This document shows, piece by piece, positions 2,362 through 24,945 of a stretch of 64,000 nucleotides of DNA (position 1 is its first letter; every line of letters begins with the position of its first letter). The notes beneath the pieces were generated by a model. It ran no database searches. It had not been told where the DNA came from and saw only the letters and a program-made list of their open reading frames with translations. Source of the DNA: Candidatus Omnitrophota bacterium (GTDB lineage: Bacteria; Omnitrophota; Gorgyraeia; Duberdicusellales; 4484-171); assembly GCA_043815185.1 (NCBI GenBank), contig JBDRJF010000005.1:3407-67406 (forward strand), given 5' to 3'. The position numbers were made by a program, and so were the translations under genes.

Positions 2362-2429
2362 TTGTTTTGCCTTCCCTTTTTTCCAAACATCTTTTTGTTG
2401 TTACCATTACGATGTCTTTGAACCATTAA

Positions 2430-2459: not shown

Positions 2460-2608
2460 CTCAAAGGTAAGGAAAAATAGCCTTTTTGAAAACATTTTCA
2501 GCACCTTTCAGGCTAAATTGGCCTTAGAGCCTAATTAAGAATAGCCAAACCAATAATATTTAGGATATTGTGGACATTAAGAATTGTAAATTGTTGATAT
2601 ATAGCGAG

Positions 2609-3475
2609 TTACTGACCAACGCTAAATAGACCTTTAGTAATAAAATCCATTATAATCGGGCCGGCCACAATCACCATGATCACTGGCAGAATGCAAAAGA
2701 TCAACGGAATAAGCATTTTTATCGGGGCTTTCACCGCAATTCTCTCTCCGCGGTTAAATCGCCTCATTCGGGAGTCCTCCGAGAGAATCTTAAAGGTCTC
2801 TTCTACCGGAGTGCCCATTTTATCAGCTTGAGCTAAAGTTCTGACAAAAGAAGTCACATCAGCGATATTGAGCCGCTTAGCCATATCTCTCAAAGCCTCG
2901 ACTCGGGGCTTGCCTACATTTATCTCCTTTAAAACAGTTATCAGCTCTTCGATTAAAGGATTAATCTCGACCTTGTTGATAACCCATTTTACTGCCGACA
3001 TAAAGTCTAACCCGGCCCCAACGCAAAGGGCCAGCAAATCTACTGTTTCCGGCAATACTCTGGCTATGGCATACTTTCGTTCATTCACCTTACTATTCAA
3101 AATAATCGACGGCAAAGAAAAGCCGAAAAGAGCCGTTACCCCAAGCCGTAATGCCGAGCTCTGGCCAAAGATAAAGAAAACAATCAGCAGGGAAAAAATA
3201 GCCATCAACTCCTTGACTGACAAGAATTCAGCCGGGCTAATCTTCCACCTGGCTAAAGATATCTTTTCTTTTAAGGATCTTTCCAGGCCCTTTAATAATT
3301 TCAAAATCAATCCGTTAACCGGGAAAAGAATACTTAGAAAAGGAGCAAAAAAAGAGCCCTGTTTTTTCTTCAAGTTATCGCCAAAGACAGAAATCGTATC
3401 CTTAGTTTTAGGTAACAAACCCAGGAAGAATAAAATAAATCCTGCAGCTAAAGCAGCATAGATCAGATAAATCAT
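2609..3475 (-). CDS. tadC: Tad/Flp pilus platform protein, TadC-like (T2SS-F family)
   Basis: 288 aa polytopic membrane protein with a T2SS-F-type cytoplasmic domain (LPETVDLLALCVGAGLDFMSAVKWV ... GTPVEETFKILSEDSRMRR). ATGA overlap with the upstream paralogue. Confidence 0.8.
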   Translation of the reverse strand: MIYLIYAALAAGFILFFLGLLPKTKDTISVFGDNLKKKQGSFFAPFLSILFPVNGLILKLLKGLERSLKEKISLARWKISPAEFLSVKELMAIFSLLIVFFIFGQSSALRLGVTALFGFSLPSIILNSKVNERKYAIARVLPETVDLLALCVGAGLDFMSAVKWVINKVEINPLIEELITVLKEINVGKPRVEALRDMAKRLNIADVTSFVRTLAQADKMGTPVEETFKILSEDSRMRRFNRGERIAVKAPIKMLIPLIFCILPVIMVIVAGPIIMDFITKGLFSVGQ

Positions 3476-4323
3476 ATTTTAATCTTTCCGAATACTACAA
3501 TCAAGATAATCCCTATTATCTGCAAAAAACCAGCCCCGATCAGGAGCAGTTTTCCCAGTTCATTCTGCCACATAACCTCAAAATGACGGGGATTAATCTT
3601 TAAAACAACTAAAGCAAATACCGGCCCAAGAAAAGAAATAATTATCGCCTGTAACCGGGCTTGAAGAGTTAAGGTCTGAACCATTTCTTTTAACTTCGAC
3701 CTGTCTCTTATGGTTTCAATCAGCCGGGAAAATACCTTGGTTAAGTCGCCTCCGGTCTCCCGGGCCACAAGAATGGCTGAAGTAATTAAGGTCATCTCCT
3801 CCGAAGGCATTCTTTTATTCATGCGGGTTAAAGCCTCCTCCAAGCTTACTCCTACCTTTACCTCTCTAACTAACAGCGAAACTTCCTGGCTTATCGGCGG
3901 GCTTACCTCCTCAGCCAAAGACTCAAAAGATTGGATTAAAGTTAAACCGCCTTTAAGGCAGCTGGACAAAATCATTAAGCTGTCGCCGAGTTGAGCGTTA
4001 AATTGAACCCTTCTTTTGATAGCCAGTATCTTTACTAAACAAAAAGGGAGAGCCAGGCCGACAATCATCCCAACGAAACCAATCCAGAGCATTTGGGTTA
4101 ATAAAAACCCTAATATTCCCAAAACTAAAGGCACAACGATATAGAGGGTAACTAAAATATCTTTCCTGAAAAAAATGAACATCTCCTCAAGCTGAGCACT
4201 GGCTTTTTCGGCTTTCTTCTTCTGAGCCTGATCCCAGCTTTTGAGGAAAAAACCTATTCCATAATAGGCAAGGATAGCAAAGGCAGCTATCAGCAGGATA
4301 TAACCAAGTACCAAAGAGTTCAT
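3472..4323 (-). CDS. tadB: Tad/Flp pilus platform protein, TadB-like (T2SS-F family)
   Basis: 283 aa membrane protein with a T2SS-F-type domain (LGDSLMILSSCLKGGLTLIQSFESLAEE ... GGDLTKVFSRLIETIRDR). Paired with the TadC-like gene as in tad loci. Confidence 0.8.
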   Translation of the reverse strand: MNSLVLGYILLIAAFAILAYYGIGFFLKSWDQAQKKKAEKASAQLEEMFIFFRKDILVTLYIVVPLVLGILGFLLTQMLWIGFVGMIVGLALPFCLVKILAIKRRVQFNAQLGDSLMILSSCLKGGLTLIQSFESLAEEVSPPISQEVSLLVREVKVGVSLEEALTRMNKRMPSEEMTLITSAILVARETGGDLTKVFSRLIETIRDRSKLKEMVQTLTLQARLQAIIISFLGPVFALVVLKINPRHFEVMWQNELGKLLLIGAGFLQIIGIILIVVFGKIKI

Positions 4324-4364
4324 TAATTATTAAAACACCGATTAATATTCAATGGTCCCGCGTA

Positions 4365-4393
4365 ATTATAAAATAATCACATTGATTTGCCAA
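4365..4393 (-). promoter_or_regulatory. Near-consensus sigma70 promoter upstream of tadB-tadC
   Basis: Minus strand reads TTGGCA (4393-4388), exactly 17 nt, TATAAT (4370-4365). It lies in the 92-nt gap between 4416-5342 and tadB, about 40 nt upstream of the tadB ATG. Confidence 0.5.
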
Positions 4394-4415
4394 GGTTAAG
4401 TTCTGAATTTTGAAG

Positions 4416-6177: not shown

Positions 6178-6286
6178 CTCTGCCCCCTTTAGCTGACAAA
6201 ACTACTAAATAAACCCTATAAACTAAAACACCCTAATTAACTTCTTCCTTCATCCTTTATCCTTTCCTTCTCTTAAATCATTCAAT

Positions 6287-7774
6287 TTATTCCTCAATAT
6301 CTTTTATTGGCACGGCTAACTCCTCTAAAAGATGGTCGCTAAAGTCAGTTAAAACAATTGAGGCATCATAGTAAGGATGGGGACTATCAATTTTCCCATC
6401 GCCGGCAAAACAAGCCTGGGCTGAAGAGGTAGTCAGGGGGTATTCGGTACTCCAAACACCAAAATCTGCTCCCTGATAGCGCTGGGTTTGAATAACCTCC
6501 ACCAGCCGCTGGGGATTATCAGGAACTTCATCAATCCCGGTAATAAGATAAGGTAAGACATCGCCAGCGCTACTACTGGTAAAGGTTCCGTTAACCAATA
6601 AGCCCGCGTGGGCAGCAATGCTGGCAACCAAACCTTTTATTTCGGAGGCAAGGGCTAATCCGGCTATCCCTACTGCGGTACAAGGAAAAGGACAAGCTGC
6701 TGTGTCAGCCCAGCCTAAAAACCCCAAGGCTTCACTTCCAAAATACCAGGCTAAAGCCAGAGCAGCGATTTCTAGCGGAAAAGGCAGCATCGCAATCCGG
6801 AGAACATACCGCTCTATTGGCTCGATTGCTACCTGAACCGCCACATCATGGCTCCGACTCTGGCCGTCAAGCCAGGTATAATTCTTGATAGCGCTGTTGG
6901 CAACGTCGTCGATATTATCTTTTACCCAAAGCTGATATTCGGCCTTCTGGCTATCACAATTATCGATTAAACAATTTAGTTCTTCCCGGGAACAGGTATC
7001 TTGACAATCACCATAATCCTTCAAACAATCATTATCATATTCACCATCACTATCAATACAATCACTTCTAACCCCGCACCTTCCCTTACAATCCCTGTCA
7101 CAAGCTTTCTCACAGGCATCACAAAGGCTAATATCCTCTAGCCTGCAGCCTTTAAGTTTGGAAGCTGCGCCGCTGTTATTAAAAGCAAAACTATAGCCGG
7201 ACTCAAGAGCCCCCTGGTAATAATCAGCAACATTTTCGCGAATCATCCGGTAGAAGTAATATTGAGTCATCCAATAGCCAGTAACCGTAACCAGTAATTT
7301 TTTCATAGTGTCATTAAAAAGCTCCATTGAACCAGCAGCCACAGCTAAGGCTGCTAGGGCGTCAGCACAATATGATCCCCACAAAGCACAACACCAGGGC
7401 TTGGGACAGCATTTGGAATACTTGCAGGCAAGGGCTAAAAAGGTCATAGCCAGCGAGGTTTTAGTCATTGCCGTAGCCATAGCAACATAACCAATAGTAA
7501 AAGAAATCGTAGCCATGGCAAAAAAGTACTGGTAATTAACTATCATCTGGGAGTTGGCTACGGCCAGGTAATTAAAGGCTGAGGCCATGGTTGAAGCAGC
7601 GGCTAAGGCTCCGGCATCAGCAGCATTAGCCGAGTAGGTCTTGGTCTTGGCAACCTTTCCTATATTTACGGTAACTAAAGCAGCAATAATTACGGCGATA
7701 ATAAAAACAATAAAAAAAGGGACTAATTGTCCCTTATGATAAGCTAACTTATTTTGATTAAAATAAATAAACAT
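6287..7774 (-). CDS. tadG: TadG-like pilus-associated protein with a Cys-rich insert
   Basis: 495 aa. N-terminal TM helix plus a Tad N-terminal signature (VTVNIGKVAKTKTYSANAADAGALAAAS). 21 Cys, including KCCPKPWCC and CDACEKACDRDCKGRCGVRSDCIDSDGEYDNDCLKDYGDCQDTCSREELNCLIDNCDS. Confidence 0.6.
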   Translation of the reverse strand: MFIYFNQNKLAYHKGQLVPFFIVFIIAVIIAALVTVNIGKVAKTKTYSANAADAGALAAASTMASAFNYLAVANSQMIVNYQYFFAMATISFTIGYVAMATAMTKTSLAMTFLALACKYSKCCPKPWCCALWGSYCADALAALAVAAGSMELFNDTMKKLLVTVTGYWMTQYYFYRMIRENVADYYQGALESGYSFAFNNSGAASKLKGCRLEDISLCDACEKACDRDCKGRCGVRSDCIDSDGEYDNDCLKDYGDCQDTCSREELNCLIDNCDSQKAEYQLWVKDNIDDVANSAIKNYTWLDGQSRSHDVAVQVAIEPIERYVLRIAMLPFPLEIAALALAWYFGSEALGFLGWADTAACPFPCTAVGIAGLALASEIKGLVASIAAHAGLLVNGTFTSSSAGDVLPYLITGIDEVPDNPQRLVEVIQTQRYQGADFGVWSTEYPLTTSSAQACFAGDGKIDSPHPYYDASIVLTDFSDHLLEELAVPIKDIEE

Positions 7775-7787
7775 TATAACATCTTAT

Positions 7788-8567: not shown

Positions 8568-9142
8568 TATTGACTGGTGTCCCACCCTCTTTGTTTACTG
8601 GTTATTCTGTTCTGGCTAATCGTCTTTATCGGCTTCTCATCGGGATCCCTTAAGGTGTAAGTTAGATTTTCATCAATATCCACTTTATGAACAGAGCTAA
8701 TAAGACTAAGGGTTTCTGTCCGATTAAAACTTTTATCCAGCTTGGTACCGTATTCAAAAACAATATCACCGATCTGGTCATCCTCACTTAAGCTTATCTC
8801 TTCGTCATTAATGTTATAATAAAAGCTTCGGATCTGCTGATCCCCAACATAAGGAACTGACCAGTGAACATAATTTGAAGCACTGAGGTTGGTTCTTTGT
8901 CCGGCTAAAGGAGTATTGATGTCGATATGCCTGCGGTCTTCCAGGGTAGTATAATTAACTATAGCATTCTCATCATGGGCTTTCTTCAAAGCCTGGCGAA
9001 AATTACCCATTAAGGTATATTGCTCATCATTTAAACGCTGGATATAGCTGATCAGTAATGAAAATGCTATTAAAATCAGGGAACCTAAGATTCCTATCTC
9101 TAATACTGCTTGAGCTTTTCGAAAATAGATCGTCTCGGTCAT
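8567..9142 (-). CDS. tadE: TadE-like pseudopilin
   Basis: 191 aa. N-terminus MTETIYFRKAQAVLEIGILGSLILIAFSLLISY (basic leader, AQxxxE, hydrophobic helix). ATGA overlap with the upstream gene. Confidence 0.55.
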   Translation of the reverse strand: MTETIYFRKAQAVLEIGILGSLILIAFSLLISYIQRLNDEQYTLMGNFRQALKKAHDENAIVNYTTLEDRRHIDINTPLAGQRTNLSASNYVHWSVPYVGDQQIRSFYYNINDEEISLSEDDQIGDIVFEYGTKLDKSFNRTETLSLISSVHKVDIDENLTYTLRDPDEKPIKTISQNRITSKQRGWDTSQ

Positions 9143-9528
9143 TCCTGGCTTTCCTCATGGCTTATCAGGGTATCCGGCGGTTGGCTTGTGCCCGGCACAC
9201 CCTGTCCGTAATCTATCTGATCTAAACTCTCTACCTCATGGGTTGAATCCACGGTGTAGGAACTTGAGATACTAAGGCCGCTGCTTCCTCCTCGGCCTTC
9301 ACTTTTCTGGATATTACTGTTAGAAGTGATATTTTTGACAGACTTCTCAGTTACCGGATCATTTAAAGAAGCTAATTGTTTATCACTGATAACAGCATCG
9401 GTTAAGTCTTTTACCCGGGCCTGGATAGCTCTGCGCAAATAAGTATTCATTGTGGCTAAAGCTAAAACCACAAGAATAATCAAAATTACATATTCTGGTA
9501 AAGCCATTGCCCTTTTAAGCCTTGGCAT
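9139..9528 (-). CDS. Flp/TadE-like pilin with a Ser/Thr-rich tail
   Basis: Probable start is ATG 9528 preceded by GGGAGG (track start 9540 is GTG). MPRLKRAMALPEYVILIILVVLALATMNTYLRRAIQARV..., 129 aa. Confidence 0.55.
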   Translation of the reverse strand: MPRLKRAMALPEYVILIILVVLALATMNTYLRRAIQARVKDLTDAVISDKQLASLNDPVTEKSVKNITSNSNIQKSEGRGGSSGLSISSSYTVDSTHEVESLDQIDYGQGVPGTSQPPDTLISHEESQE

Positions 9529-9583
9529 AACGCCTCCCACTTTTACCTTTATCCTGCCGCTTTGCAGATTTTATGCTGGTTGC

Positions 9584-9892
9584 TTATTGGCCCCAGTATT
9601 CATTAGCCAGGACATCTACATCTTCACTAGTTTGCCTATTCTGAGTGGTGTTACTGCCAGAAGTGGTGACTCCGCCTGATAAATTCTCATTACTGGTAGT
9701 AGTACTAGTAACATTGGTTTGGCCTGTAGTGTATCCCGGTGAATATTGCTCTCCCAGTTCGTCAGACGCGGATTTAAGTTTTCCCTGTAAGCCCCTCTTC
9801 AAATAAACCTGCATGGCAATTAAGCCGCCGGCAACTACCGCGGCGATCAGAGCATACTCTAAGGTACTCTGTGCTCTCCTCTTAATCAACAT
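9584..9892 (-). CDS. flp: Flp-like pilin, extended form (102 aa)
   Basis: MLIKRRAQSTLEYALIAAVVAGGLIAMQVYLKRGLQG followed by a Thr/Ser/Gly/Asn-rich tail. GAGGAGG Shine-Dalgarno upstream of the ATG. Confidence 0.65.
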   Translation of the reverse strand: MLIKRRAQSTLEYALIAAVVAGGLIAMQVYLKRGLQGKLKSASDELGEQYSPGYTTGQTNVTSTTTSNENLSGGVTTSGSNTTQNRQTSEDVDVLANEYWGQ

Positions 9893-10343: not shown

Positions 10344-10523
10344 TCACTGACCCAGATTAGAATCCATCTTTGAGGTCATTCTCGTCATGGTGTTAGTGGC
10401 ATCAGTAAAGCTCTGTTCTACTGCCGGCCTAACAAGAGTTCTGGCAGCAAATATTATCCCAGCAACGATCGCTGCTAAAATAAGGGTATACTCCAAAATA
10501 CTCTGCGCCTTTGTTAGTCTCAT
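10344..10523 (-). CDS. flp: Flp-type mini-pilin (59 aa), not in ORF track
   Basis: Manual translation: MRLTKAQSILEYTLILAAIVAGIIFAARTLVRPAVEQSFTDATNTMTRMTSKMDSNLGQ*. ATG at 10523 preceded by AGGAGGTGG; TGA at 10344-10346. Confidence 0.7.
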   Translation of the reverse strand: MRLTKAQSILEYTLILAAIVAGIIFAARTLVRPAVEQSFTDATNTMTRMTSKMDSNLGQ

Positions 10524-10542
10524 TCTACTCCACCTCCTAAAA

Positions 10543-10698
10543 TTACCTGATGCTCTCGTTTAACTCTGCCCGCACCTGGGCCAGACGAGCATTCATGGCT
10601 CTTTGAATATATATTTGCATGGCCATTAAGGCCCCGGAAATTATTGCGATTAATGCTGCGTACTCAAGGAAACTCTGGGCTTTAGTTTTTTTGAACAT
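10543..10698 (-). CDS. flp: Flp-type mini-pilin (51 aa), not in ORF track
   Basis: Manual translation: MFKKTKAQSFLEYAALIAIISGALMAMQIYIQRAMNARLAQVRAELNESIR*. ATG at 10698 preceded by GAGGA; TAA at 10543-10545. Confidence 0.7.
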   Translation of the reverse strand: MFKKTKAQSFLEYAALIAIISGALMAMQIYIQRAMNARLAQVRAELNESIR

Positions 10699-10705
10699 CT
10701 TATCC

Positions 10706-10870
10706 TCACTGTAATATTACCTTTACACAACTGTTATAGTGACTAGAAAAACTTTGCTTTAGTTTAGAAAGAAATCCGGTACTAATAATAGCGGCAATCA
10801 CTATAGCAAATATAACTACATATTCAAAAACTATCTGAGCCTGTTTAAATTGTTTATCTTGGGTTCGCAT
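10706..10870 (-). CDS. flp: Flp-type mini-pilin (54 aa), not in ORF track
   Basis: Manual translation: MRTQDKQFKQAQIVFEYVVIFAIVIAAIISTGFLSKLKQSFSSHYNSCVKVILQ*. ATG at 10870 preceded by AGGAG; TGA at 10706-10708. First gene of the pilin array. Confidence 0.65.
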   Translation of the reverse strand: MRTQDKQFKQAQIVFEYVVIFAIVIAAIISTGFLSKLKQSFSSHYNSCVKVILQ

Positions 10871-11106: not shown

Positions 11107-12549
11107 TCAAAAAAGAAAAACCCGGCGCTGGTCCAGGTAAAAACACCCTTTATTAAAGGCTTCTTTAGCCTGTTTGGGCATTTTGCTCAGGCTAACCCCA
11201 AGATAATCCTGGCCCCAGACTAAACTTCCGGCTTTATTTTTAGGCTCCCAGCCCCAGATTATCTCTTTAAAAACAGCCGATAAAATTTGGCCCACTCTCG
11301 AGAAATCAAGCATTTCCTTAAAATTTAGCTTCTGAGGCAGCATCTTAGTCAAATAACCCTTATTTTTAGAGGTAGTAACCAGGAATTCCTCAATAGCCCT
11401 CATATCCTCAATAAACCGCTTTTGGGCCTGGGGCCATAAATATAGGTACTTTTTTAAAAAAGAAGCTACTCTTAACTTGTTACGGCTGATGTTGCCGGTA
11501 AGCAGGCCCCAGGTAGGTAGCGAAGCTGCAGCTGGCTTTATGAGGACATTATTTATCATAAGTTGTTGCTTTCCTTCATGTTGCGCAACCTTTGTTAGAA
11601 CTGAAGCACATAAAAGTTCACCGACGCCACCCCAAAAAAAGCTTTTAAAATTTGAGGGTCTAGCTACAAAGCTTATACCCTTAGAAATAGCTTCCGGATA
11701 GTAACCAATAAAAAAGGAGACCTTAGATAAATTTATTCTCTTTTGCTCTATGACTCTGCCCCGAGGATCTAAAAATTCAATCTTTTCTATTCCTTTATCT
11801 ATAGCCTGGAGAAAATCAAAGGTCAAGGGTGAAAGGTAGCCAAAACTCTTAGTATAGCCGATAATAATGGTCTTACTCTCAATCATGCCTTGAATAAGTT
11901 TAGTGGCTGATCTTAAAGGAAGGAAGAATTCTGCTATCCGGCAAGGCCCATTCCAGAAAGTAGACATCTTAGCATCAAAGTAACTGCAATAGCCATTATT
12001 AAAGTAAAATTTTAGGCTTGAAACCAGGATTAAACTGTCTCTTAGAGGGCCCAGGTCTATCTGGGGTTTATGTTGGGAAAGCTGGTGCTGAAAGTAACTC
12101 AGTTTACTGGCCGGCAGGGTCCTTAGCCCGGCTAATCTCAAAAAACCTTCTCTTTGGGCGCTTTTTTGCGGTTGCTCATTAATCAAGGCTGAAAAACTGG
12201 TTAAAATAATTAATTGCTTTAATAAATCCTTGGTTAATTTAGGGAAATAATTTTTAAGCTCCTGGCTTAAATAATCGAATATACCGACTTGATAATCCAG
12301 GCAGCGAAGCAGGAATAATCCGCAATGCTCAAGAGTCCGGCCCTTATAAATAAGTAAGGATTTCTTACGGCCCCTTTTTTCTTTGAGGCCGGAGGAGGTA
12401 AGAATTTTATTAACTGCGCTTTTAGAGATAGTAATTTTATGTTTCTGCTGCAGCAGCCCAGATAAAAGCCTAACCCCCAGATGAGGAGCACGTCTTTTCT
12501 CTTGAAGCACTATTTTTCTTAGCGCAGGAGTTACTATTCTTTTTGGCAT
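11107..12549 (-). CDS. Hypothetical 480-aa protein with an N-terminal transposase-type helix-turn-helix
   Basis: N-terminus LRKIVLQEKRRAPHLGVRLLSGLLQQKHKITISKSAVNKILTSSGLKEKRGRKK resembles the HTH seen at the start of IS481/IS3-type transposases. I cannot recognise a DDE/rve core in the remaining ~400 aa, and no terminal inverted repeats are seen. Confidence 0.4.
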   Translation of the reverse strand: MPKRIVTPALRKIVLQEKRRAPHLGVRLLSGLLQQKHKITISKSAVNKILTSSGLKEKRGRKKSLLIYKGRTLEHCGLFLLRCLDYQVGIFDYLSQELKNYFPKLTKDLLKQLIILTSFSALINEQPQKSAQREGFLRLAGLRTLPASKLSYFQHQLSQHKPQIDLGPLRDSLILVSSLKFYFNNGYCSYFDAKMSTFWNGPCRIAEFFLPLRSATKLIQGMIESKTIIIGYTKSFGYLSPLTFDFLQAIDKGIEKIEFLDPRGRVIEQKRINLSKVSFFIGYYPEAISKGISFVARPSNFKSFFWGGVGELLCASVLTKVAQHEGKQQLMINNVLIKPAAASLPTWGLLTGNISRNKLRVASFLKKYLYLWPQAQKRFIEDMRAIEEFLVTTSKNKGYLTKMLPQKLNFKEMLDFSRVGQILSAVFKEIIWGWEPKNKAGSLVWGQDYLGVSLSKMPKQAKEAFNKGCFYLDQRRVFLF

Positions 12550-12755: not shown

Positions 12756-12780
12756 CTGGTTGAGATCAGATCTTAACCGG
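12756..12780. repeat. REP variant (CTGGTTGAGATCAGATCTTAACCGG)
   Basis: Same outer arms GGTTGAG...CT(C/T)AACC but a different centre. Overlaps the yraN stop codon (12773-12775). Two other hairpins lie between it and REP copy 1: 12663-12687 (ttgaagtc-N9-gacttcaa) and 12718-12742. Confidence 0.6.
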
Positions 12781-13195
12781 GTAGAAAGTTGATATTTTTG
12801 TAATGGTTAATGCGGCTAACTCGATAGTTATTATCTAAGACAATACAAATTGCATCTATTCTATACTCTTTCTTCCATCTTTTCTTAGCTACGTAAGCTT
12901 TGGCATTATTGATAAGCTTAATTTTTTTGTTTCGGTTGAGCGACTCTTCAGGTATGCCAAACCTCTCACCCTTCCTTGTCCTCACCTCAATAAATACTAA
13001 TATACCTTTGCATAAGGCAATTAAATCAATTTCAGCCCACCTTGTCCGGTAATTTTGTTCAATTATAACGTACCTGTTAGACTGTAAGTATTTCTTGGCT
13101 ATTTCTTCTCCTAACCGGCCGGTTTTAAGATTCTTTGCCTTAATCGAAAGGCTTTTCTGAATGATTTCTGGATTGTCTTCTTTAAAAATACTCAT
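12773..13195 (-). CDS. yraN: YraN-family (UPF0102) endonuclease-like protein
   Basis: 140 aa; GRLGEEIAKKYLQSNRYVIIEQNYRTRWAEIDLIA...ILVFIEVRTR matches the YraN pattern. ATGA overlap with comM. Confidence 0.8.
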   Translation of the reverse strand: MSIFKEDNPEIIQKSLSIKAKNLKTGRLGEEIAKKYLQSNRYVIIEQNYRTRWAEIDLIALCKGILVFIEVRTRKGERFGIPEESLNRNKKIKLINNAKAYVAKKRWKKEYRIDAICIVLDNNYRVSRINHYKNINFLPG

Positions 13196-14733
13196 AAACT
13201 TTCTGCCTGAATTTTTGGCCTGTATTGTAAAGCTTCTGCCATATGGACTACATTTATTTCTGGTAAACTCTCTAAATCGGCTATAGTCCTTGCCACTTTT
13301 ATCATTTTAAAATAAGAGCGCGCGGAAAGCCCAAAAGCAATACCAGCCCGGCGCAGTAATTGTTTTATCTCTTTTGAAAGCTTACAATGTTTTTTTATCT
13401 GTGCGTTTTTCATCTCTGCATTAGTATAAATATCCTCTTCTTGGAAACGAGCCCGTTGAATTTTTCTGGCTGAAACCACACGTTTTTGTATTTGTTCGGA
13501 GGTTTCTAAACCGGTCTTTATTTGCTGATCATCGGAAAGCTCTTTAACGTTAACTGCCGGAACATTAACATGAAGGTCAATACGGTCTATCATCGGACCG
13601 GAAACCCGTTTCCTGTATTTTTCTATTTCCCTTTGCGTGCATGCGCAAGGCTTTTTAGGATGATACAAGTAACCACAGGGGCAAGGATTAGCTGAAGCTA
13701 TCAGCATAAATTTACAAGGATACCTTACTCTTTCTCTGCTGCGGGAAATGGAAACCTGGCCATCTTCTATAGGTTGTCTTAACGCTTCTAAAACACTACG
13801 GGGAAATTCATTGAACTCATCCAAAAATAATGTTCCACGATGGGCCAAACTTATTTCTCCAGGCTGAGGCCTTGTGCCTCCGCCAATAAGGCCAACCTGG
13901 GAAATAGTATGGTGAGGTGACCTGAAAGGGCGTGTTTTAATAATTGAACCTTGTGGCGGAATACGGCCGGCAGCCGAATATATTTTTGTAACCTCCAACT
14001 GCTCTCCACCCATTAACGCCGGTAAAATGCCTTGAACTGCCCGTGCCAACATGGTTTTACCTGAACCCGGGCTACCGGACATAAAAAGATTATGCCCTCC
14101 GGCAGCTGAAATCTCCATTGCCCTTTTAGCTTGCTCTTGGCCTAAAATCTCTACCATATCAAATTCAGCCCTAACAGCACCCTCTTCCTCATCCACATCC
14201 TTAAATTCAACCGGCTGGATTTCGATTTCATCTAATAAATAAGCTAATAAATGATTTAGGTTTTCAATAGGATAAACGTCTATTCCTTTGACAACAGCTG
14301 CTTCGTTTGCGCATGATTTTGGCACAAATATATTTTTAATTCCCTTTTCTTTAGCAAACAATGCTAATAGTAATGCCCCTTTGGTATGGCGTAATGTTCC
14401 GTCAAGAGAAAGCTCGCCAAAGAAAAGGCTACCTTTGGGAATTTTGAATTGAATGATTGATGCTAAAATGCCTACCGCTATAGGCAAATCATAGAAAGAA
14501 CCTTCCTTGGGGACATCGCCCGGTGCTAAATTAACCACAATTCTTCTTGAAGGAAATTCAATATTTGAATTTATAATTGCGGTTCTAACTCTCTCTTTGC
14601 TTTCATCCACTGCTTTACTAGGCAAGCCAACGATTTCAAAAGCCGGTAAACCTCTATTGGCAACATTTACCTCTACATCTATACCAATGGCCTCAAGCCC
14701 TGAATTTGACGCTGATAAAACCTTAACTAACAT
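13192..14733 (-). CDS. comM: YifB/ComM-family Mg-chelatase-like AAA+ ATPase
   Basis: 513 aa. Lon-like N-terminal domain (GLPAFEIVGLPSKAVDESKERVRTAI), Walker A GSPGSGKTM, Cys cluster ANPCPCGY...PCAC, C-terminal ChlI-like region. Confidence 0.85.
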   Translation of the reverse strand: MLVKVLSASNSGLEAIGIDVEVNVANRGLPAFEIVGLPSKAVDESKERVRTAIINSNIEFPSRRIVVNLAPGDVPKEGSFYDLPIAVGILASIIQFKIPKGSLFFGELSLDGTLRHTKGALLLALFAKEKGIKNIFVPKSCANEAAVVKGIDVYPIENLNHLLAYLLDEIEIQPVEFKDVDEEEGAVRAEFDMVEILGQEQAKRAMEISAAGGHNLFMSGSPGSGKTMLARAVQGILPALMGGEQLEVTKIYSAAGRIPPQGSIIKTRPFRSPHHTISQVGLIGGGTRPQPGEISLAHRGTLFLDEFNEFPRSVLEALRQPIEDGQVSISRSRERVRYPCKFMLIASANPCPCGYLYHPKKPCACTQREIEKYRKRVSGPMIDRIDLHVNVPAVNVKELSDDQQIKTGLETSEQIQKRVVSARKIQRARFQEEDIYTNAEMKNAQIKKHCKLSKEIKQLLRRAGIAFGLSARSYFKMIKVARTIADLESLPEINVVHMAEALQYRPKIQAESL

Positions 14734-14751
14734 ACCTCACCCCCCACCAAA

Positions 14752-14799
14752 CCGGTTGAGGCTAAGCCTCAACCGGTCTTTAAGCCTCAACCGGTCTTT
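14752..14799. repeat. REP palindrome copy 2 with a tandem half-site duplication
   Basis: CCGGTTGAGGCTAAGCCTCAACCGG at 14752-14776. The 18-nt unit aagcctcaaccggtcttt occurs twice in tandem (14764-14781 and 14782-14799). Abuts the dprA stop. Confidence 0.9.
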
Positions 14800-15676
14800 A
14801 ATCGCATTTCCCAGTATTTATATAATACTTTCCTCCCTCTTCCAATAATAAACCCCTTAGCTGCATAAGAGAAAGTATGGTACCTATCTCAGCAACTGAT
14901 TTTTTTATAAAACGAGATAGGTCATCTACTTTCATGGGCTCACGTTGTAATTCTTCTAATACGGCTTGCTCAAAACTATTTAAACTTGACAACCGTGATG
15001 AAACTTTTGGAGATCCGAATCGAATTGTATCATAGCTTGCCAATACATCTTCCGAGCTAGTTACAATATCAGCGCCTTCCTTAATAAGTTGTAAAATACC
15101 CTGTGAATTTAAGCTGGTAAGAGGGCCAGGGACAACAAAAAGTTTTCTTTTGTAACTCCTAGCAAGGCCCGCTGTAATCAAAGAGCCGCTTTTTTTACCA
15201 GCTTCAACGACCATAGTCACCTTGGATAAACCAGCGACAATTCTGTTTCGTTTAGGATAAGTCCATACAGCCGGCGAAAAACTCCCTTCAAACTCTGATA
15301 TGACTAACCCGTTATTTTCTAATATTTCATTATATAAACTCTCTTGATGTTGAGGATGAATCATGTCAATTCCGCATGGCATAACTGCGATGGTCTTTCC
15401 TCCAGCATCTACTGCTGCTTTATGCGCTGTTGCATCAATTCCGTACATGAATCCGGAAACAATTGTTACCCCGGCACTTGATATTTCTGATACTAATTTA
15501 GTGGTGATTTGCTTACCATAAGCTGTCATCCTCCTTGAACCCACAACTGCCAAGCAGTTTTCAAGAATAGAAGCATCCCAATTTCCCTTGTAATAAATTT
15601 TTTCCGGAGGAGAAGGAATCTCCTTAAGCAACTTAGGATACTTTGAATTTTCAATCGTAACCACACCACGCTTCAT
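14798..15676 (-). CDS. dprA: DNA processing protein DprA (Smf)
   Basis: Rossmann-like DprA core (LAVVGSRRMTAYGKQ...GIDATAHKAA...). Probable start is MKRGVV at 15676; the track start 15718 is a non-ATG codon inside REP copy 3. Confidence 0.85.
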   Translation of the reverse strand: MKRGVVTIENSKYPKLLKEIPSPPEKIYYKGNWDASILENCLAVVGSRRMTAYGKQITTKLVSEISSAGVTIVSGFMYGIDATAHKAAVDAGGKTIAVMPCGIDMIHPQHQESLYNEILENNGLVISEFEGSFSPAVWTYPKRNRIVAGLSKVTMVVEAGKKSGSLITAGLARSYKRKLFVVPGPLTSLNSQGILQLIKEGADIVTSSEDVLASYDTIRFGSPKVSSRLSSLNSFEQAVLEELQREPMKVDDLSRFIKKSVAEIGTILSLMQLRGLLLEEGGKYYINTGKCD

Positions 15677-15692
15677 TTTGCTAACTTTTGAT

Positions 15693-15715
15693 CGGTTGAG
15701 GCTAAGCCTCAACCG
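15693..15715. repeat. REP palindrome copy 3
   Basis: CGGTTGAGGCTAAGCCTCAACCG, 8 nt downstream of the RAYT stop codon. Confidence 0.9.
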
Positions 15716-15723
15716 CACTCTTA

Positions 15724-16434
15724 TTAATCAATGGTCAACATACCTAATTTTTCTCTCAGATTCATAGAAAATATACAGTCTTTTGCAAACTTTTTATATT
15801 TTTTGGAGCATGGAAACATTTCTCCTAATATATCTTTACCTATAATCGGTGAATTTCTTTCTCCGGCGTAATCCGCTAAACTGAAATAGGGATATTTAGC
15901 AGCCCATTGATAGGCATCATCAAAATTTTTTATAGCCGTTTCGAAGCCCTTAGGGTAAAGTTCAAAGGGATTCTTTACCTGAATATATACGCTCAGATAT
16001 CTTAAATATTCATCGTTGTTTACTACTCTTGCTTTATAAGGGCCTTGGAGAAACCTACCAGATTCTTGATATTTAGCGTTAAAATAGGTGGCCATACCAG
16101 TGCCAAACTTTTGCATAAACAACGCAAGACCACCTTCACTAATCGCCTTAAGAAGAAGATGAAAATGGTTTTCCATCAAAGAAAAAGCAATTATCTTTAC
16201 AAGTGGCCTTTGAGGAGGCCAATCTTTTAGCCAAATTAATTTTTTACCAAATGCCAGACCTATTTTCCTCCTTAGGCTTCTAAAAGGATTTGCAATCGGT
16301 ATTGAGGTATTAAAATAATATAACATCTGTAAAAAACGCCATCTATCACAAGCCTCACGAACTATTGCCTGTTTTCTGTTTCCTCTGTTATATACATGCA
16401 CATAACTGCCTATCGTAAAAACTTCTTTTCTCAT
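15724..16434 (-). CDS. REP-associated tyrosine transposase (RAYT), IS200/Y1 HUH family
   Basis: 236 aa. HUH motif HFH at residues 90-92 (ENHFHLLLKA). N-terminal YVHVYNRGNRKQAIV. Tyr/NP motif LSVYIQVKNPFEL. Size and motif order fit Y1 transposase-like RAYTs. Confidence 0.75.
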   Translation of the reverse strand: MRKEVFTIGSYVHVYNRGNRKQAIVREACDRWRFLQMLYYFNTSIPIANPFRSLRRKIGLAFGKKLIWLKDWPPQRPLVKIIAFSLMENHFHLLLKAISEGGLALFMQKFGTGMATYFNAKYQESGRFLQGPYKARVVNNDEYLRYLSVYIQVKNPFELYPKGFETAIKNFDDAYQWAAKYPYFSLADYAGERNSPIIGKDILGEMFPCSKKYKKFAKDCIFSMNLREKLGMLTID

Positions 16435-17128: not shown

Positions 17129-17683
17129 CTAAGGGTGGGGGGATTTGAATCGGTCTTTTAGGCGATTGGAGATTTCGTCGTTCTCATCGCGAGAGTGGCG
17201 ACGCCAGGAATCAAACACCATAATAAGAATCCGGCCGTTTTCGCTTTCCAATACCCAACGTATGCCCAAAACAAAAGCGGCTACCAGACATTGCATAAAA
17301 TACTTTGGCAGTAGAAATGAGATGATGAAAAACATAATTGCCCCGGCAAGAGATAGATTCTTTTTCATTCGACTCACCCTTCCCTTGCCAATAGTATTTT
17401 TACCATTCTTAAGCAGTGCTTTGGCTTTATTTACAAGCCCAGAGGGAACTTTCCCTCCTATATTACGAATATTTGATTTTTTAGCTTCAAAGGCTAAATT
17501 AAGCTGGCTAAGGCAGAAATTGCATCGAGAAAGATGTTCTTCAACGCCTTTACGTTCCTGGCTACCCAGCTTAGACCCAAGATAATCCAGCAAGACTTCC
17601 TGACCAAGGCATTGAGCAGTTTTTTCAATATTGCCCGACTCTTTTTTAAGGTAGTTTTTAAGATACTCTTCTATTTTTCGCAT
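17129..17683 (-). CDS. Membrane-bound zinc-binding anti-sigma factor (ZAS type)
   Basis: 184 aa. HxxxCxxC motif (HLSRCNFC), then TM helices (LSLAGAIMFFIISFLLP, LVAAFVLGIRWVL). Directly downstream of the ECF sigma gene. Confidence 0.7.
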   Translation of the reverse strand: MRKIEEYLKNYLKKESGNIEKTAQCLGQEVLLDYLGSKLGSQERKGVEEHLSRCNFCLSQLNLAFEAKKSNIRNIGGKVPSGLVNKAKALLKNGKNTIGKGRVSRMKKNLSLAGAIMFFIISFLLPKYFMQCLVAAFVLGIRWVLESENGRILIMVFDSWRRHSRDENDEISNRLKDRFKSPHP

Positions 17684-17726
17684 TTTTCTCTCCTCTTTAA
17701 TAGACGAAATAGCTCTTCTTTTTCTT

Positions 17727-18293
17727 TCAAAAATCTTTTAAGCCCATTTTCTCTAGCCCTTTCTTAACCTTTTCTTTAGTCCGGGCGATTATGGTTGATA
17801 CGCTATTTACCGGCATAGCAGTAATTTCAGCAATTTCTTTATGGGTCCTGCCTTCAATAAGATTAAGGGAAATAGCAATCTTTTCCTTAACAGGCAAAGT
17901 ATCCATAATATTACCTAATAGATTTAATAAATCCCTTTTGTATAATTCCTCTTCAAATTTATCATTTTTTAACACCGGCATCTCTATAACAAGCTTCTGG
18001 TCTTGCTTTATTTTGCGCCGCATAAAATCAACTGTTTTATTGGAAGCTGTTACCGCCAGCCAGCTGGCAATTGTTTTTATATCTTTTAATTGAAGGAGTT
18101 TATCCCCTTGTAAAATTGATAAAAACACTTCCTGAAAAATACAATTAATATCGTCCTGGTTAAAACTAAAACCGCTAGCGGTCAAACGCTTTCTTATTGC
18201 CCAATAAATCAGCCTTGAATACTTTTGGACAAATATATCCCAAGCCTTTTTGTCCTTTTTTAAACAATAACTTATAAGTTGAAGTTCATTCAT
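17727..18293 (-). CDS. ECF-type sigma-70 family sigma factor
   Basis: 188 aa. Region 2-like (YSRLIYWAIRKRL...DDINCIFQEVFLSIL) and region 4 HTH (RTHKEIAEITAMPVNSVSTIIARTKEKV). Confidence 0.8.
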   Translation of the reverse strand: MNELQLISYCLKKDKKAWDIFVQKYSRLIYWAIRKRLTASGFSFNQDDINCIFQEVFLSILQGDKLLQLKDIKTIASWLAVTASNKTVDFMRRKIKQDQKLVIEMPVLKNDKFEEELYKRDLLNLLGNIMDTLPVKEKIAISLNLIEGRTHKEIAEITAMPVNSVSTIIARTKEKVKKGLEKMGLKDF

Positions 18294-21537: not shown

Positions 21538-23133
21538 TTAATCTATCTCGTAAACGATGGGTATATCAATCCATATATCTTTTAGCTCAATATCAGGAGG
21601 AAAAGACGGGTAGGGGCTTAGAGATTTAACCACTTTTAATACACTATCGTCAAAAGAAAGATAATTTGAGGATTGGCTAATCTGAGCATCCATAAGCTCG
21701 CCTTTGCGGTTAAGATGCAACTTTATCTTCATTGACCCCTGCCAACCGGCATCCTGAGCCAGGCGGGGATATTCCAAAGACTGAAAGATAGTTTTTTGAA
21801 TTTCTAAAATATAATTATTTAAACCAGCTTCTTCGGCTAGATACTGAGGATTAACTTTTAACCTTGCAGATGAAAAATCTTCTCTGCCGGTTACGATCTT
21901 ATCTTCACTTTTTTCGTCCGTCTCCACCAGCCTGGGAACAATAGAAATCACTAGCTCGGTTTGGTCATTCTGATAATCTTTAGACCTAAAAAGTGCTCCT
22001 AAGATAGGAATATCACCTAAGCCGGGAACTTTACTAATGTCATCTTTAGTAACTTTATCTTTAAATAGACCGGCGATAACAACCCCCTGGCCGGATCTAA
22101 GGTTCAAGACAGTAGAAGTACTCCTGGTAGCAAAAGATTTGATGGTTGTGCCGTCAGCGCGTTCGTATTGGCCCTCGGTAGATAACTCCTTTACCTCGGT
22201 AACTAAATTTACCTTTATATCGTCTCCTCTGAGAACAACCGGTTGAATATTTAATTTTACCCCGTATTCTTTATATTCTATGTCTTCAGCCACGGTATCG
22301 CCGGAAGAAGAGGAACTGACTTTAACTATTGGAACTTCTCCTCCGACTAAAAAACTAGCCTCCTCCCCGGATAAACATAGAAGCTTTGGTTTAGCTAAAA
22401 TTTTACCCTTGCCCTCTTTAGCGGCAGCCATAATCTGAACATCCAGGGCTGATCTGGTAATATCTACAATCCTAAAAACATCTTTAAATTTTCCGGTTGA
22501 GGCCGCAGAAGTAAGCTGATTTACAGCTGTCGGTGAAGAACCCGAGGTTCCGGTCCAGTCAAGGCCAAAAACTTCCGAAAAACTCTTAGTTAATTCTAAA
22601 ATATGGCATTCTATCTCTACCATCCGGCGCTCTTCTTTTACTAATAACAAGTTATCAATACTTTCGGTGAAAGGCGCAAGTATTGTTTCTATCTGGCCCC
22701 TCTCGACGGCAGTTACCTCTCCGATGACCATTACCTTACCGGTGGCATCATTCTTTTTAAAACTCACATTTTTCATTTTTAGTCTTTTGTTAATTGCCCT
22801 AGCTAATATTTTAGCCAAAGCATCGGGATCATTAGCATAAACGGTAATATAAAACAGTTTTTCTCCCTCCCTGTCCCATACTGTCAGAATAGTGCTTCCT
22901 GACTGCTTAGCTAAAAGTATTATTTCTTCAGTCGATACCGAGTCGACATCGGCTATCTCAGGATTTCTGACTGAAACTCTTTTCGGCGAGACTACCTCTA
23001 TTGCCTTAACTTCTCCTGTTACCATAAATATATCGCCGCTCTCCTCTTCTAGATCCAGAAATTGGCCAAAGGCGCTTTGAGAAGTAATTAGGGCTGTACA
23101 AACTAGTATTTGGAAAAATAATTTTCTTAGCAT
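21538..23133 (-). CDS. cpaC: CpaC/RcpA-type secretin with a C-terminal TonB_C-like domain
   Basis: 531 aa. Signal peptide. Secretin core (VPGLGDIPILGALFRSKDYQNDQTELVISIVPRLV). The last ~90 aa (nt ~21538-21816) read YPRLAQDAGWQGSMKIKLHLNRKGELMDAQISQSSNYLSFDDSVLKVVKSLSPYPSFPP, a TonB C-terminal-type pattern. Confidence 0.75.
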   Translation of the reverse strand: MLRKLFFQILVCTALITSQSAFGQFLDLEEESGDIFMVTGEVKAIEVVSPKRVSVRNPEIADVDSVSTEEIILLAKQSGSTILTVWDREGEKLFYITVYANDPDALAKILARAINKRLKMKNVSFKKNDATGKVMVIGEVTAVERGQIETILAPFTESIDNLLLVKEERRMVEIECHILELTKSFSEVFGLDWTGTSGSSPTAVNQLTSAASTGKFKDVFRIVDITRSALDVQIMAAAKEGKGKILAKPKLLCLSGEEASFLVGGEVPIVKVSSSSSGDTVAEDIEYKEYGVKLNIQPVVLRGDDIKVNLVTEVKELSTEGQYERADGTTIKSFATRSTSTVLNLRSGQGVVIAGLFKDKVTKDDISKVPGLGDIPILGALFRSKDYQNDQTELVISIVPRLVETDEKSEDKIVTGREDFSSARLKVNPQYLAEEAGLNNYILEIQKTIFQSLEYPRLAQDAGWQGSMKIKLHLNRKGELMDAQISQSSNYLSFDDSVLKVVKSLSPYPSFPPDIELKDIWIDIPIVYEID

Positions 23134-23149
23134 TGAATACTCCTACCCC

Positions 23150-23956
23150 TTACTTAGATAGAGAAACCTCTTCTTTTTGAGTTCCTTTATAAACTTCCAG
23201 GGTCGCTTTCTTCTCTTCTACCTGAGGGGGCTGAGCCCACATACCCAACCTCCGCATAAGCGTCTCAAAAGTAACTGCTGAATAACCGACTTCTTGAGAA
23301 GAATCCAGGGGGGCTCGCAGAACCAATCGAATTTTATTACCGGATTCTAAGACAAAGGTAAGTAGTTTTATATCTTCGGGTTTAAGAGCAATTGTAACTG
23401 TCTCAGCTGAACTCTCTATCCGGTAAGGAGAAATATTCTTGCCGGTAGCCAGAATCTTTACTCCCTGGAAAAGGGTAACTACCAGGTTTTGCCCGGCTTG
23501 AATCGCAAAAGTCCCGATAATATCCACATGATCGCTGGGTTTCATTAACCCTTCGACAGAAGAAATTTTATCTACCGGTATGGTTATCGCCCGCATACCT
23601 TTAGGAATTCTTTGAGAAAGAAACTGAGCCCCGCTTACACTGCCAATCATATTGTTGTTTATATGCTGTCCTTTTAAAATATCTACCCTGGCTATTTTCC
23701 CTACCGCTGACTCTATGGCGGTCAGGTCTCCGGGCTGATAAGCAGTAGAGCGAATTCGGCTTAAGGCCACCGTATCCTGATCAATAGCGCTCTCTTTAGA
23801 AATATCCACCCTAGCGGTTACTACTTCTAATATTTCACCTTTGTTATAAAGCTGCTGGATCAGTTTCTGATCTTCCTGCATTTTGGTATGAATTAGCAGT
23901 ATAGCAACAACCGCTAAGCCAATTCCGATTATCAGATTTAAAACTCTCTTATCCAT
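23150..23956 (-). CDS. cpaB: CpaB/RcpC-like Flp pilus assembly protein
   Basis: 268 aa. N-terminal TM (LNLIIGIGLAVVAILLI), a SAF-like segment (EVVTARVDISKESAIDQDTVAL), then an RcpC-like beta-rich region. Directly upstream of the secretin. Confidence 0.7.
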   Translation of the reverse strand: MDKRVLNLIIGIGLAVVAILLIHTKMQEDQKLIQQLYNKGEILEVVTARVDISKESAIDQDTVALSRIRSTAYQPGDLTAIESAVGKIARVDILKGQHINNNMIGSVSGAQFLSQRIPKGMRAITIPVDKISSVEGLMKPSDHVDIIGTFAIQAGQNLVVTLFQGVKILATGKNISPYRIESSAETVTIALKPEDIKLLTFVLESGNKIRLVLRAPLDSSQEVGYSAVTFETLMRRLGMWAQPPQVEEKKATLEVYKGTQKEEVSLSK

Positions 23957-23964: not shown

Positions 23965-24945
23965 TTAGTTAATCAAACCGCTGTTTATAACCGTATTCGG
24001 TTCGAATCTAGATCTTACTGCCCCCATCAATTGGCCGATAGAATCCATACTCTTATTCTGAAGCAAGATATACTCTAACTCGTTGTATACCTCATCCAGA
24101 GATTGAGGTACTCCTTTTTGGACATCATCAACCTTAAGAATATAATACTCCTCCTTGACCGGATCTTTAAAAACGCTGGAGGTGCCATCTTTATCTAAAC
24201 TAAAAGCCACTTCCCAGAACTTGGGAAATTTTAATCCTGGTTGTCTTACTAAATATTCCTGGTCGTTATGTTTTAGCAGCCCGCCGGCTGCTGCACTCTC
24301 AGTGAGAGAGTGCTGTGAGGCTAATTCATTAAAGTTACTTCCGCTAAGCAGCTGGATTAATAAATCCTTGGCTTTAGATTCTGAATCTACTACGATTTCC
24401 CTGATTTTTCTTCTCTCTATGCTCTCTAAAGTTCTTTTGTAGTCGTTATTATATAAATCCTCTACCTCTATGGGGGTTACATTAATATCCTTAAGGGTAT
24501 TTTTGAGCAAGGAAAAACCAAGAATCTCGACTGTGCTTTTTCTTATACCCTTTACCACTTCCGGGTCTCGATCTAATCCCCGCAGTTTAGCTTCTTGAGC
24601 TAGTAACTCCTGATTAATCATAAGTTCTAAATAAATCTTTTTGGTCTCAGGGGAGCTTAAATCAATCCTCTCCACTTGGGGAGATAGGAATGTACCGGCT
24701 AAAACTCCTAATGCCTGTACCGGAATTTTAGTGTTTCCTCCGTTGAGCTTAATCAACATATCTACCTGCTGATCAAACTCATCAATGGTTAATACCCAAT
24801 CATTTATTTTAACCAAAATAGGGCTGGTTGGTCCGATTACAGGAGTGGTTGGCGGAGAAACTTTCCTAAAACTAGGTAAGAGATCACAACCTAAGAAACT
24901 CAAGGCAAAAACAACGGCTACAATAACAAAATATATCCTTTTCAT
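23965..24945 (-). CDS. Lipoprotein peptidyl-prolyl isomerase (parvulin/SurA-PrsA-like)
   Basis: 326 aa. Lipobox SFLGC. Parvulin-like segment REIVVDSESKAKDLLIQLLSGSNFNELASQHSLTESAAAGGLL. First gene of the machinery operon. Confidence 0.6.
   Translation of the reverse strand: MKRIYFVIVAVVFALSFLGCDLLPSFRKVSPPTTPVIGPTSPILVKINDWVLTIDEFDQQVDMLIKLNGGNTKIPVQALGVLAGTFLSPQVERIDLSSPETKKIYLELMINQELLAQEAKLRGLDRDPEVVKGIRKSTVEILGFSLLKNTLKDINVTPIEVEDLYNNDYKRTLESIERRKIREIVVDSESKAKDLLIQLLSGSNFNELASQHSLTESAAAGGLLKHNDQEYLVRQPGLKFPKFWEVAFSLDKDGTSSVFKDPVKEEYYILKVDDVQKGVPQSLDEVYNELEYILLQNKSMDSIGQLMGAVRSRFEPNTVINSGLIN

Follow-up and report, generated by a model that had tools for sequence, protein, structure and literature searches.

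The 64-kb window analysed here, the whole stretch of 64,000 nucleotides from contig JBDRJF010000005.1 of a Candidatus Omnitrophota bacterium, carries genes for a Tad/Flp (type IVc) pilus machine, and we characterised one of them, located at positions 21538-23133. This interval consists of one unbroken open reading frame (ORF) of 531 amino acids (aa) plus the stop codon on the minus strand, and the plus-strand frame across it contains many stops. The encoded protein is the outer-membrane secretin of the pilus machine, and it ends in a domain of the TonB_C family. It is identical to the NCBI entry P0001, named 'MAG: TonB family protein [Candidatus Omnitrophota bacterium]'.

The assignment to the Tad secretins follows from the pil_N domain, the fold and the gene context. 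In Pfam searches T2SS-T3SS_pil_N (PF13629) was recovered at aa 39-96 with an E-value of 6.7e-12 (45.4 bits, cutoff 23) and Secretin (PF00263) at aa 237-404 with 8.1e-42 (143.1 bits, cutoff 27.5). The NCBIfam secretin models GspD, PilQ, MshL and SctC gave matches below threshold only. No AMIN, LysM, OmpA or SPOR domain was found in the protein by Pfam. The full-length AlphaFold2 (AF2) model, built from 60 sequences, is a monomer of moderate quality with a mean predicted local distance difference test (pLDDT) score of 70. It shows, in this order, the signal peptide, the N-domain, the N1-like domain, the secretin core, a disordered linker (406-433) and TonB_C (436-528), and the strands of the pil_N region (aa 33-99) reach pLDDT values of ~80-92. 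Compared with the PDB by Foldseek, the model matched chains of GspD, InvG, RcpA (8odn) and PilQ with E-values from 1e-20 to 1e-8, and gave separate matches to TonB C-terminal domains. The secretin N-terminal strand EIxLxVGE was considered as an internal TonB box and rejected, as it is the first strand of the pil_N domain and confidently folded. We found no lipobox at the cleavage site of the signal peptide; a lipobox-like string is present in 17 of 356 family members and was judged to be there by chance. Judging from the sequences, the family is not lipidated, unlike the HxcQ-type self-piloting lipoprotein secretins.

A preliminary description of the stretch had proposed that the secretin core is followed by a linker and a TonB_C-like domain. 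Pfam, NCBIfam, AF2 and Foldseek agree with this, and the linker has ~30-40 aa; of the two strings quoted there, TELVISIVPRLV has its last residue at aa 403 and IQKTIFQSLEYPRL its first at aa 445. TonB_C (PF03544) matched aa 453-530 with an E-value of 8.2e-14 and 52.3 bits (curated cutoff 24.6), TonB_2 matched as well, and the NCBIfam model tonB_Cterm (TIGR01352) scored 2.4e-15 and 56.6 bits (cutoff 27.1), so that the Secretin and TonB_C profiles are both above their curated cutoffs. The identity as TolA was not supported (TIGR02794, E = 0.066; 12.4 bits, cutoff 59.45). We also built a profile from the last 132 residues aligned from 36 homologues, and its best matches were the C-terminal domains of Helicobacter pylori TonB (6sly and 5lw8, E ~2e-13), which cover the entire domain together with the leading helix.

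The AF2 model of aa 400-531, resting on the same alignment, has the alpha-beta-beta-alpha-beta fold of TonB C-terminal domains. Residues 436-531 are arranged as helix-helix-strand-strand-helix-strand with pLDDT > 90, and residues 400-432 are disordered with pLDDT < 50. All of the top 24 Foldseek matches in the PDB were C-terminal domains of TonB, HasB, FusB or TolA. The closest fold match was 6sly (TM-score 0.74, root-mean-square deviation 1.9 A), with 9dc4_T (0.77) and 2gsk_B (0.75) also among the matches, and some matched structures (6s3w, 2gsk, 2grx and 6i97) contain a bound partner peptide, either a TonB box or the TolB N-terminus. The conserved positions are Y441, Q446, YP455-456, GW.G463-466, G478, SSG488-490, FD494-495, FP511-512, P525 and Y528; conservation is at least 90 % for YP, G-W-x-G, SSG, FD and FP as well as for Y441 and Q446 of the leading helix. 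Membership in the TonB_C family is thus confirmed by profile and by fold, far beyond chance, and the outcome that would have contradicted the preliminary description, a C-terminus with neither a TonB_C match nor the fold, did not occur.

The preliminary description had also raised the question whether the fusion is conserved in related genomes. We collected relatives by three word-index searches, seeded with the window protein, a long-linker member and a high-GC member, and by an exhaustive phmmer run against 1.84 billion cluster representatives, which gave 494 proteins in all, and called the modules with secretin and TonB_C profiles built in this analysis. Both modules were present in 490 of the 494 proteins, always in the same order, and the four exceptions are short, or lie on short contigs, or have longer cluster-mates. 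The exhaustive search returned 917 clusters (50% identity) at E<=1e-30; among the best 150 of them (down to 2e-53) 147 had both modules. Every match with a phylum-level name was Omnitrophota or Omnitrophica, few names being available among divergent cluster members, and the JGI label for family members is 'pilus assembly protein CpaC'. The high-GC members were considered as non-Omnitrophota and this was rejected, because their named relatives are again Omnitrophota. The single-sequence contig scan recovered one close relative only, locus L002 (CAYVYJ010000002.1), which is labelled 'uncultured Planctomycetia bacterium', encodes a protein 89-92% identical to the window secretin and has the same synteny (1875-9806; P0261). 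A relative from the P0217 cluster, on a 3.4-kb contig, is labelled 'Hydrothermarchaeota archaeon'. Both labels look like binning or labelling errors.

Four genes, encoding a lipoprotein peptidyl-prolyl isomerase (PPIase), RcpC, Secretin::TonB_C and TadZ::TadA, recur as a core in the loci L001-L004, whose secretins are 34-89% identical to that of the window. Across 310 members the mean pairwise identity reached 0.46 in the secretin core and 0.42 in TonB_C; the two N-domains had values of 0.40 and 0.32, and the linker had 0.18. The ratio of nonsynonymous to synonymous substitution rates, calculated against the 89%-identical orthologue of L002, was 0.24 for TonB_C and 0.16 for the secretin core. 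TonB_C is under as much constraint as the core. The Secretin::TonB_C architecture is therefore conserved across Omnitrophota and under purifying selection. An artefact of assembly or gene calling is ruled out by the unbroken ORF, by the same architecture in 490 proteins of independent assemblies (from NCBI, JGI, ENA and Logan) and by the purifying selection. The NCBI name would make the protein an ordinary TonB energy transducer, and the name itself is what speaks for it. However, aa 1-403 comprise a signal peptide and secretin domains, with no TonB-type inner-membrane anchor, and the domain map refutes this reading. Moreover, when essentially all window ORFs with 100 or more aa were scanned with Pfam, no ExbB, ExbD or TonB-dependent transporter genes were found in the 64 kb. 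An energy transducer or an artefact has, in our view, practically no chance of being the right explanation.

The secretin core and TonB_C are joined by linkers of 15-362 residues (median 33) in the family, rich in E, K, A, S and P, and 41 members have linkers of at least 100 aa. Some of the long linkers look like long charged single helices and recall domain II of TolA. TonB_C always forms the very C-terminus, the median tail after it being 1 residue, and is present in two tandem copies in 20 members. The unusual members with tandem copies or long linkers include P0122, P0123, P0128, P0137, P0147, P0172, P0174, P0197, P0217 and P0225; in P0172 a further 312 aa, to which no domain could be assigned, follow the second TonB_C. 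We found no other recognisable domains in 10 long variants, LysM, OmpA, SPOR and AMIN included. The C-terminal position, the variable tether and the tandem copies form a pattern typical of avidity-type binding modules.

Just upstream of TonB_C, at aa 424-432, the linker contains a semi-conserved motif, KLxVYPxYL, with ~50% conservation. One explanation of the fusion could use this motif: TonB_C would bind another TonB_C or a strand of the neighbouring protomer (the motif, or a domain-swapped dimer as observed with TonB C-terminal domains), and would staple the 13-14-mer together or regulate its gating. The S-domains of type II secretion system secretins stabilise adjacent subunits, which fits such a role, as does the motif itself. 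Dimerisation is within the capacity of TonB C-terminal domains (PMC9022066). However, outside the motif both the length and the sequence of the linker vary strongly, which is hard to square with a geometrically defined ring, and aa 400-432 are modelled with low confidence, so that we regard self-association as quite improbable.

The positions of the domains and of the surrounding pilus genes are given in Table 1.

Table 1. Domains of the Tad secretin and genes of the Tad/Flp locus; positions refer to the window, or to the named locus for the PPIase orthologues.
Feature	Position	Strand	Evidence or remark
Tad/Flp-type secretin (RcpA/CpaC-like) with C-terminal TonB_C, whole gene	21538..23133	-	ORF, Pfam, NCBIfam
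Signal peptide, aa 1-23 (MLRKLFFQILVCTALITSQSAFG, then cleavage, Q next), Sec/signal peptidase I type	23065..23133	-	sequence; helix 2-21 in model
T2SS-T3SS_pil_N, beta-rich N-domain, aa 33-99, equivalent of RcpA N-domain	22837..23037	-	PF13629, model strands
N1-like alpha/beta domain, aa 103-165	22639..22827	-	secondary structure, pLDDT 82-88 (full-length model)
Secretin core, aa 171-403	21925..22623	-	PF00263; Foldseek
Charged disordered linker, aa 404-435	21829..21924	-	pLDDT < 50
TonB/TolA-type C-terminal domain with leading helix, aa 436-531	21541..21828	-	profiles, model, fold matches
SurA/PrsA-like PPIase, predicted lipoprotein, first gene of operon	23965..24945	-	Rotamase_2, Rotamase, SurA_N_3; lipobox FLG|CD
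RcpC/CpaB with N-terminal transmembrane helix, SAF and RcpC domains, hairpin-like C-terminal tail	23150..23956	-	PF16976 5.5e-18, PF08666
TadZ (ParA/MinD)::TadA/CpaF (T2SSE) fusion ATPase, 721 aa	19368..21533	-	Pfam
Second, stand-alone TadA/CpaF-like ATPase, 375 aa	18302..19429	-	PF00437 4.3e-51
Three small Flp-type pilins, 59, 51 and 54 aa, ...KAQS[IF]LEY...	10344..10870	-	same arrangement in L003
Three larger Flp-like pilins/pseudopilins, 133, 102 and 122 aa	9139..10295	-	A|QSTxEY N-terminal motifs read from sequence
TadE/G-like protein	6287..7774	-	PF13400 7.2e-7
TadB and TadC platform proteins (two T2SSF genes, 2609-3475 and 3472-4323)	2609..4323	-	PF00482 1.5e-13, 5.1e-22
PPIase orthologues	L001 8253-9149; L003 8185-9105; L004 8229-9110		lipobox

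The Tad/Flp genes near the secretin are all co-directional, on the minus strand, in the order lipoprotein PPIase, RcpC, secretin, TadZ::TadA and the second TadA-like ATPase, followed by a sigma gene and a probable anti-sigma gene. The block with pilins, TadE/G and TadB/C lies on the same strand ~7 kb beyond the ATPase end of the secretin block; in it, Flp_Fap matched the ORF at 9584-9892 under the cutoff (4.6e-5). On the evidence of its gene content, the Tad machine in the window is complete save for the prepilin peptidase. As the preliminary description had stated, there is no TadD- or RcpB-like gene in the window; no TPR (tetratricopeptide repeat)/TadD-, RcpB- or CpaD/OmpA-like gene turned up among its ORFs in the same Pfam scans. 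Promoter and terminator scans gave signals no higher than the shuffled expectation.

The called start of the second TadA/CpaF-like ATPase overlaps the preceding gene by 62 nt. A 212-aa version of it is found in L001 and it is absent from L003 and L004, and it is a variable accessory motor gene. The TadZ::TadA fusion is kept in L001, L002, L003 and L004; the predator Bdellovibrio, too, reportedly has a tadZA fusion. TadB/C of Omnitrophota are described as grouping with those of Bdellovibrionales (PMC10066038).

Just downstream of the Tad ATPases lies a sigma factor of the extracytoplasmic function type (17727-18293, minus strand), adjoined by a 184-aa protein (17129-17683, minus strand) with an H-x3-C-x2-C motif, a transmembrane segment and no Pfam match. 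The genes at 17129-18293 are probably a sigma/anti-sigma pair, and L002 has ORFs that match the pair in size. The pilin/TadBC block also contains secreted or pilin-like proteins without a Pfam family (1141-2361, 4416-6177 and 7788-9142, minus strand): a Gly/Ser-rich protein of 406 aa, one of 308 aa whose N-terminus is Flp-like, one of 282 aa that has a signal peptide, one of 265 aa that combines a transmembrane segment and a coiled coil, and one of 191 aa whose N-terminus is TadE-like. These may be lineage-specific minor pilins or tip factors. Directly before the three small Flp pilin genes there is a gene for a 480-aa protein (11107-12549, minus strand) with weak transposase-type helix-turn-helix matches, and in L003 (14247-17606) a homologue-like gene encoding 532 aa likewise precedes Flp-like ORFs. 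This protein may be a conserved component or regulator of the Tad locus instead of a transposase.

Between the two Tad blocks lie genes for YraN, a ComM-like ATPase of the Mg-chelatase family and DprA (12773-15718, minus strand), adjoined by an IS200-like Y1 transposase (15724-16434). ComM and DprA take part in natural transformation. The placement of the group may be coincidental, because it was not seen in L001, L003 and L004. Elsewhere in the window, a 1616-aa SMC protein (39903-44753, minus strand) is interrupted in the Walker A loop by an intein (GPNGCGK|C...HN|S), which carries a LAGLIDADG homing endonuclease (Intein_splicing 8.6e-25; LAGLIDADG_3 1.1e-12).

The PPIase gene is adjacent in 5 of the 5 loci examined, always directly upstream of RcpC and the secretin. 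This bears on an explanation in which TonB_C is a structured S-domain and uses beta-strand augmentation to catch a lipoprotein by its flexible N-terminal tether. The SurA/PrsA-like lipoprotein from the first gene of the operon is the obvious candidate, and it would chaperone the secretin and target it to the outer membrane. TonB_C is located exactly where secretins bear the pilotin-binding S-domain (PMC10499894). A lipobox is present in all four PPIase orthologues that we read (FLG|CD in the window, ICG|CD in L001, LWG|CD in L003 and LSG|CF in L004), each with an apparently unstructured stretch after the lipidated Cys, and TolA binds the disordered TolB N-terminus in a similar way (6s3w among the fold matches). 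However, the four orthologues share little sequence in the stretch that follows the Cys, and three of them have Asp at position +2. In Escherichia coli lipoproteins Asp at this position is a signal for retention in the inner membrane. Moreover, tandem TonB_C domains and linkers of up to 362 aa poorly fit a fixed 1:1 dock. Taken together, a pilotin receptor of this kind, although the foremost of the rival explanations, seems rather unlikely to us. Another nearby candidate ligand of TonB_C, the C-terminal tail of CpaB, was dropped, as it corresponds to the RcpC beta-hairpin, which in Pseudomonas docks onto the secretin N-domain (PMC12307814).

TonB_C could also capture the TonB box of a different protein in the outer membrane, for instance a transporter or a surface protein of giant size, and so couple or co-localise the pilus with uptake or with an adhesin. 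The fold canonically binds TonB boxes (2gsk, 2grx, 6i97 and 9dc4 are among the matches), and in Myxococcus GltG/J employ TonB_C in a machine not devoted to transport. A giant ORF (1809 aa) adjoins the L001 locus, and the giant-protein loci of Omnitrophota are reportedly flanked by pilus and 'TonB-domain' genes (preprint 10.64898/2026.06.07.730766). However, a giant ORF is not adjacent in the window, in L003 or in L004, the window has no gene for a TonB-dependent transporter, and canonical import clusters of the TonB-dependent receptor/sus type were not found in the flanking windows of giant-protein loci that were examined there (same preprint). With no motor behind it, such binding would perform no work. 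We consider such a capture very unlikely.

The reading that we favour, by analogy with other secretins and with a probability of about 0.5, is that TonB_C may serve as a passive periplasmic module for anchoring or docking, at the position of the pilotin-binding S-domain. If the secretin is a 13-14-mer with C-termini on the periplasmic side, as extrapolated from RcpA, it would hold a ring of ~13-14 tethered TonB_C domains under the outer membrane. Each of them could bind a short beta-strand of a partner at the edge of its sheet, as in TonB and TolA, and/or peptidoglycan, and such anchoring would hold the secretin firmly in the envelope and stabilise it when the pilus extends and retracts under force. 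Elsewhere this task falls to separate proteins, the TadD pilotin or the OmpA-like lipoprotein CpaD, or, in cis, to the AMIN domains of PilQ. The peptide-binding analogy is supported by complexes of TolA and TonB domains among the fold matches (6s3w, 2gsk, 2grx and 6i97), and dimers of TonB C-terminal domains have been linked to peptidoglycan binding (PMC9022066). Energy transduction by TonB_C is not expected, because there is no inner-membrane anchor and the 64-kb window has no ExbBD motor genes. An anchor of the avidity type is favoured over a dock of fixed geometry because the tether varies in length and the copies are occasionally doubled.

Several points weigh against an anchor or dock. 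Peptidoglycan binding is a minority property of TonB C-terminal domains and is weakly established, and the 10 long variants carry no LysM, OmpA, SPOR or AMIN domain, so there is no support for it by association. The preliminary description had suggested that the domain replaces a pilotin. This may be wrong because a lipoprotein PPIase is conserved upstream; it may be the true assembly factor and is at least an equal candidate for the pilotin or chaperone. Proteins of ~660 aa with TPR are encoded near the locus in L001 and L003, so a distant TadD-like factor may be encoded elsewhere in the genome, and the negative results for ExbBD and transporters cover the 64-kb window.

A bolder form of the anchor, an 'inverted TonB', would be a motor-less domain fixed to the secretin at the outer membrane, whose variable tether captures a specific partner strand or the cell wall. 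We consider it doubtful. If it were true, it would be a new class of secretin accessory module, and pilotin-dependent assembly and anchoring would have been replaced throughout a phylum whose members are ultra-small and host-dependent. Taken as a Rosetta-stone fusion, it would also suggest that TonB_C and secretins are direct partners, and that this underlies the so far unexplained requirement of Pseudomonas type IV pilus assembly for TonB3/PocAB.

We found no description of the secretin-TonB_C fusion in the searchable literature, in targeted searches that included Omnitrophota Tad and V. archaeovorus. The main paper on Omnitrophota genomics analyses RcpA and TadBC and never mentions TonB (PMC10066038). 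The 'TonB-domain' genes that a 2026 preprint records next to giant-protein loci (10.64898/2026.06.07.730766) were apparently not recognised as secretin genes and may encode the same Secretin::TonB_C protein. Hundreds of Omnitrophota Tad secretins are misnamed 'TonB family protein', a systematic misannotation by which reconstructions of metabolism can be misled, for instance when 'TonB' genes near giant-protein loci are counted. The fusion itself is real and phylum-wide, and it is the function that we infer. The delivery, assembly and fixation of secretins in the outer membrane vary by system and are only now emerging for Tad pili. In Omnitrophota the Tad pili are believed to attach the bacteria to host or prey cells. 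TonB_C fused in cis and conserved across Omnitrophota would be a third solution beside TadD of Pseudomonas and CpaD of Caulobacter, and a case in which the TonB_C fold acts from the side of the outer membrane and needs no motor. The fusion also offers a defined, easily truncated module for studies of pilotin-independent assembly or cell-wall anchoring.

In its pil_N domain, N1-like domain and secretin core the protein resembles RcpA of Pseudomonas aeruginosa and Aggregatibacter actinomycetemcomitans and CpaC of Caulobacter, and its gene context is also theirs, with RcpC/CpaB, TadZ, TadA, TadB/C and Flp pilins. The C-terminus is different, as the Tad secretins characterised so far finish with a short S-domain that has no fixed structure. 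In P. aeruginosa RcpA it is a random coil of ~17 residues, the last 4 of which bind TadD, a TPR lipoprotein required for assembly of the secretin (PMC10499894). The Omnitrophota protein has instead a 32-aa linker and a folded TonB_C of 96 aa, and no TadD gene in the window. In Caulobacter the TadD orthologue is dispensable, and the OmpA-like lipoprotein CpaD forms a belt around CpaC with a proposed tie to peptidoglycan (PMC13170226). CpaD is the proposed functional analogue of TonB_C, as both are accessory modules at the secretin periphery. However, CpaD is a separate lipoprotein with an OmpA-like fold, whereas TonB_C is fused in cis, has the TonB/TolA fold and is not lipidated. The AMIN domains of type IVa PilQ, which bind peptidoglycan and are present in 2-3 tandem copies (PMC5285504), are likewise accessory modules within a pilus secretin, to be compared with 1-2 copies of TonB_C. 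They differ in being N-terminal, in their fold and in their demonstrated peptidoglycan binding, TonB_C being C-terminal.

With TonB, HasB, FusB and TolA the domain shares the fold, the motifs YP, G.xG, SSG, [LF]D and F.P, and a flexible spacer that is charged or contains Pro. Those four have an inner-membrane anchor and ExbBD or TolQR as their motor, whereas the TonB_C described here is suspended from a channel in the outer membrane, lacks a membrane anchor of its own and has no motor genes in its neighbourhood. The use of TonB_C in a surface organelle and not in nutrient import is shared with GltG/GltJ of Myxococcus gliding and with TonB3-PocAB of P. aeruginosa, where TonB3 is required for the production and polar placement of type IV pili (PMC5285504), but those proteins are in the inner membrane, coupled to a motor and not fused to a secretin. 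All the characterised TonB_C proteins that we found (TonB, HasB, FusB, TolA, GltG/J and TonB3) are inner-membrane and motor-coupled, and compared with them the topology of the Omnitrophota protein is inverted.

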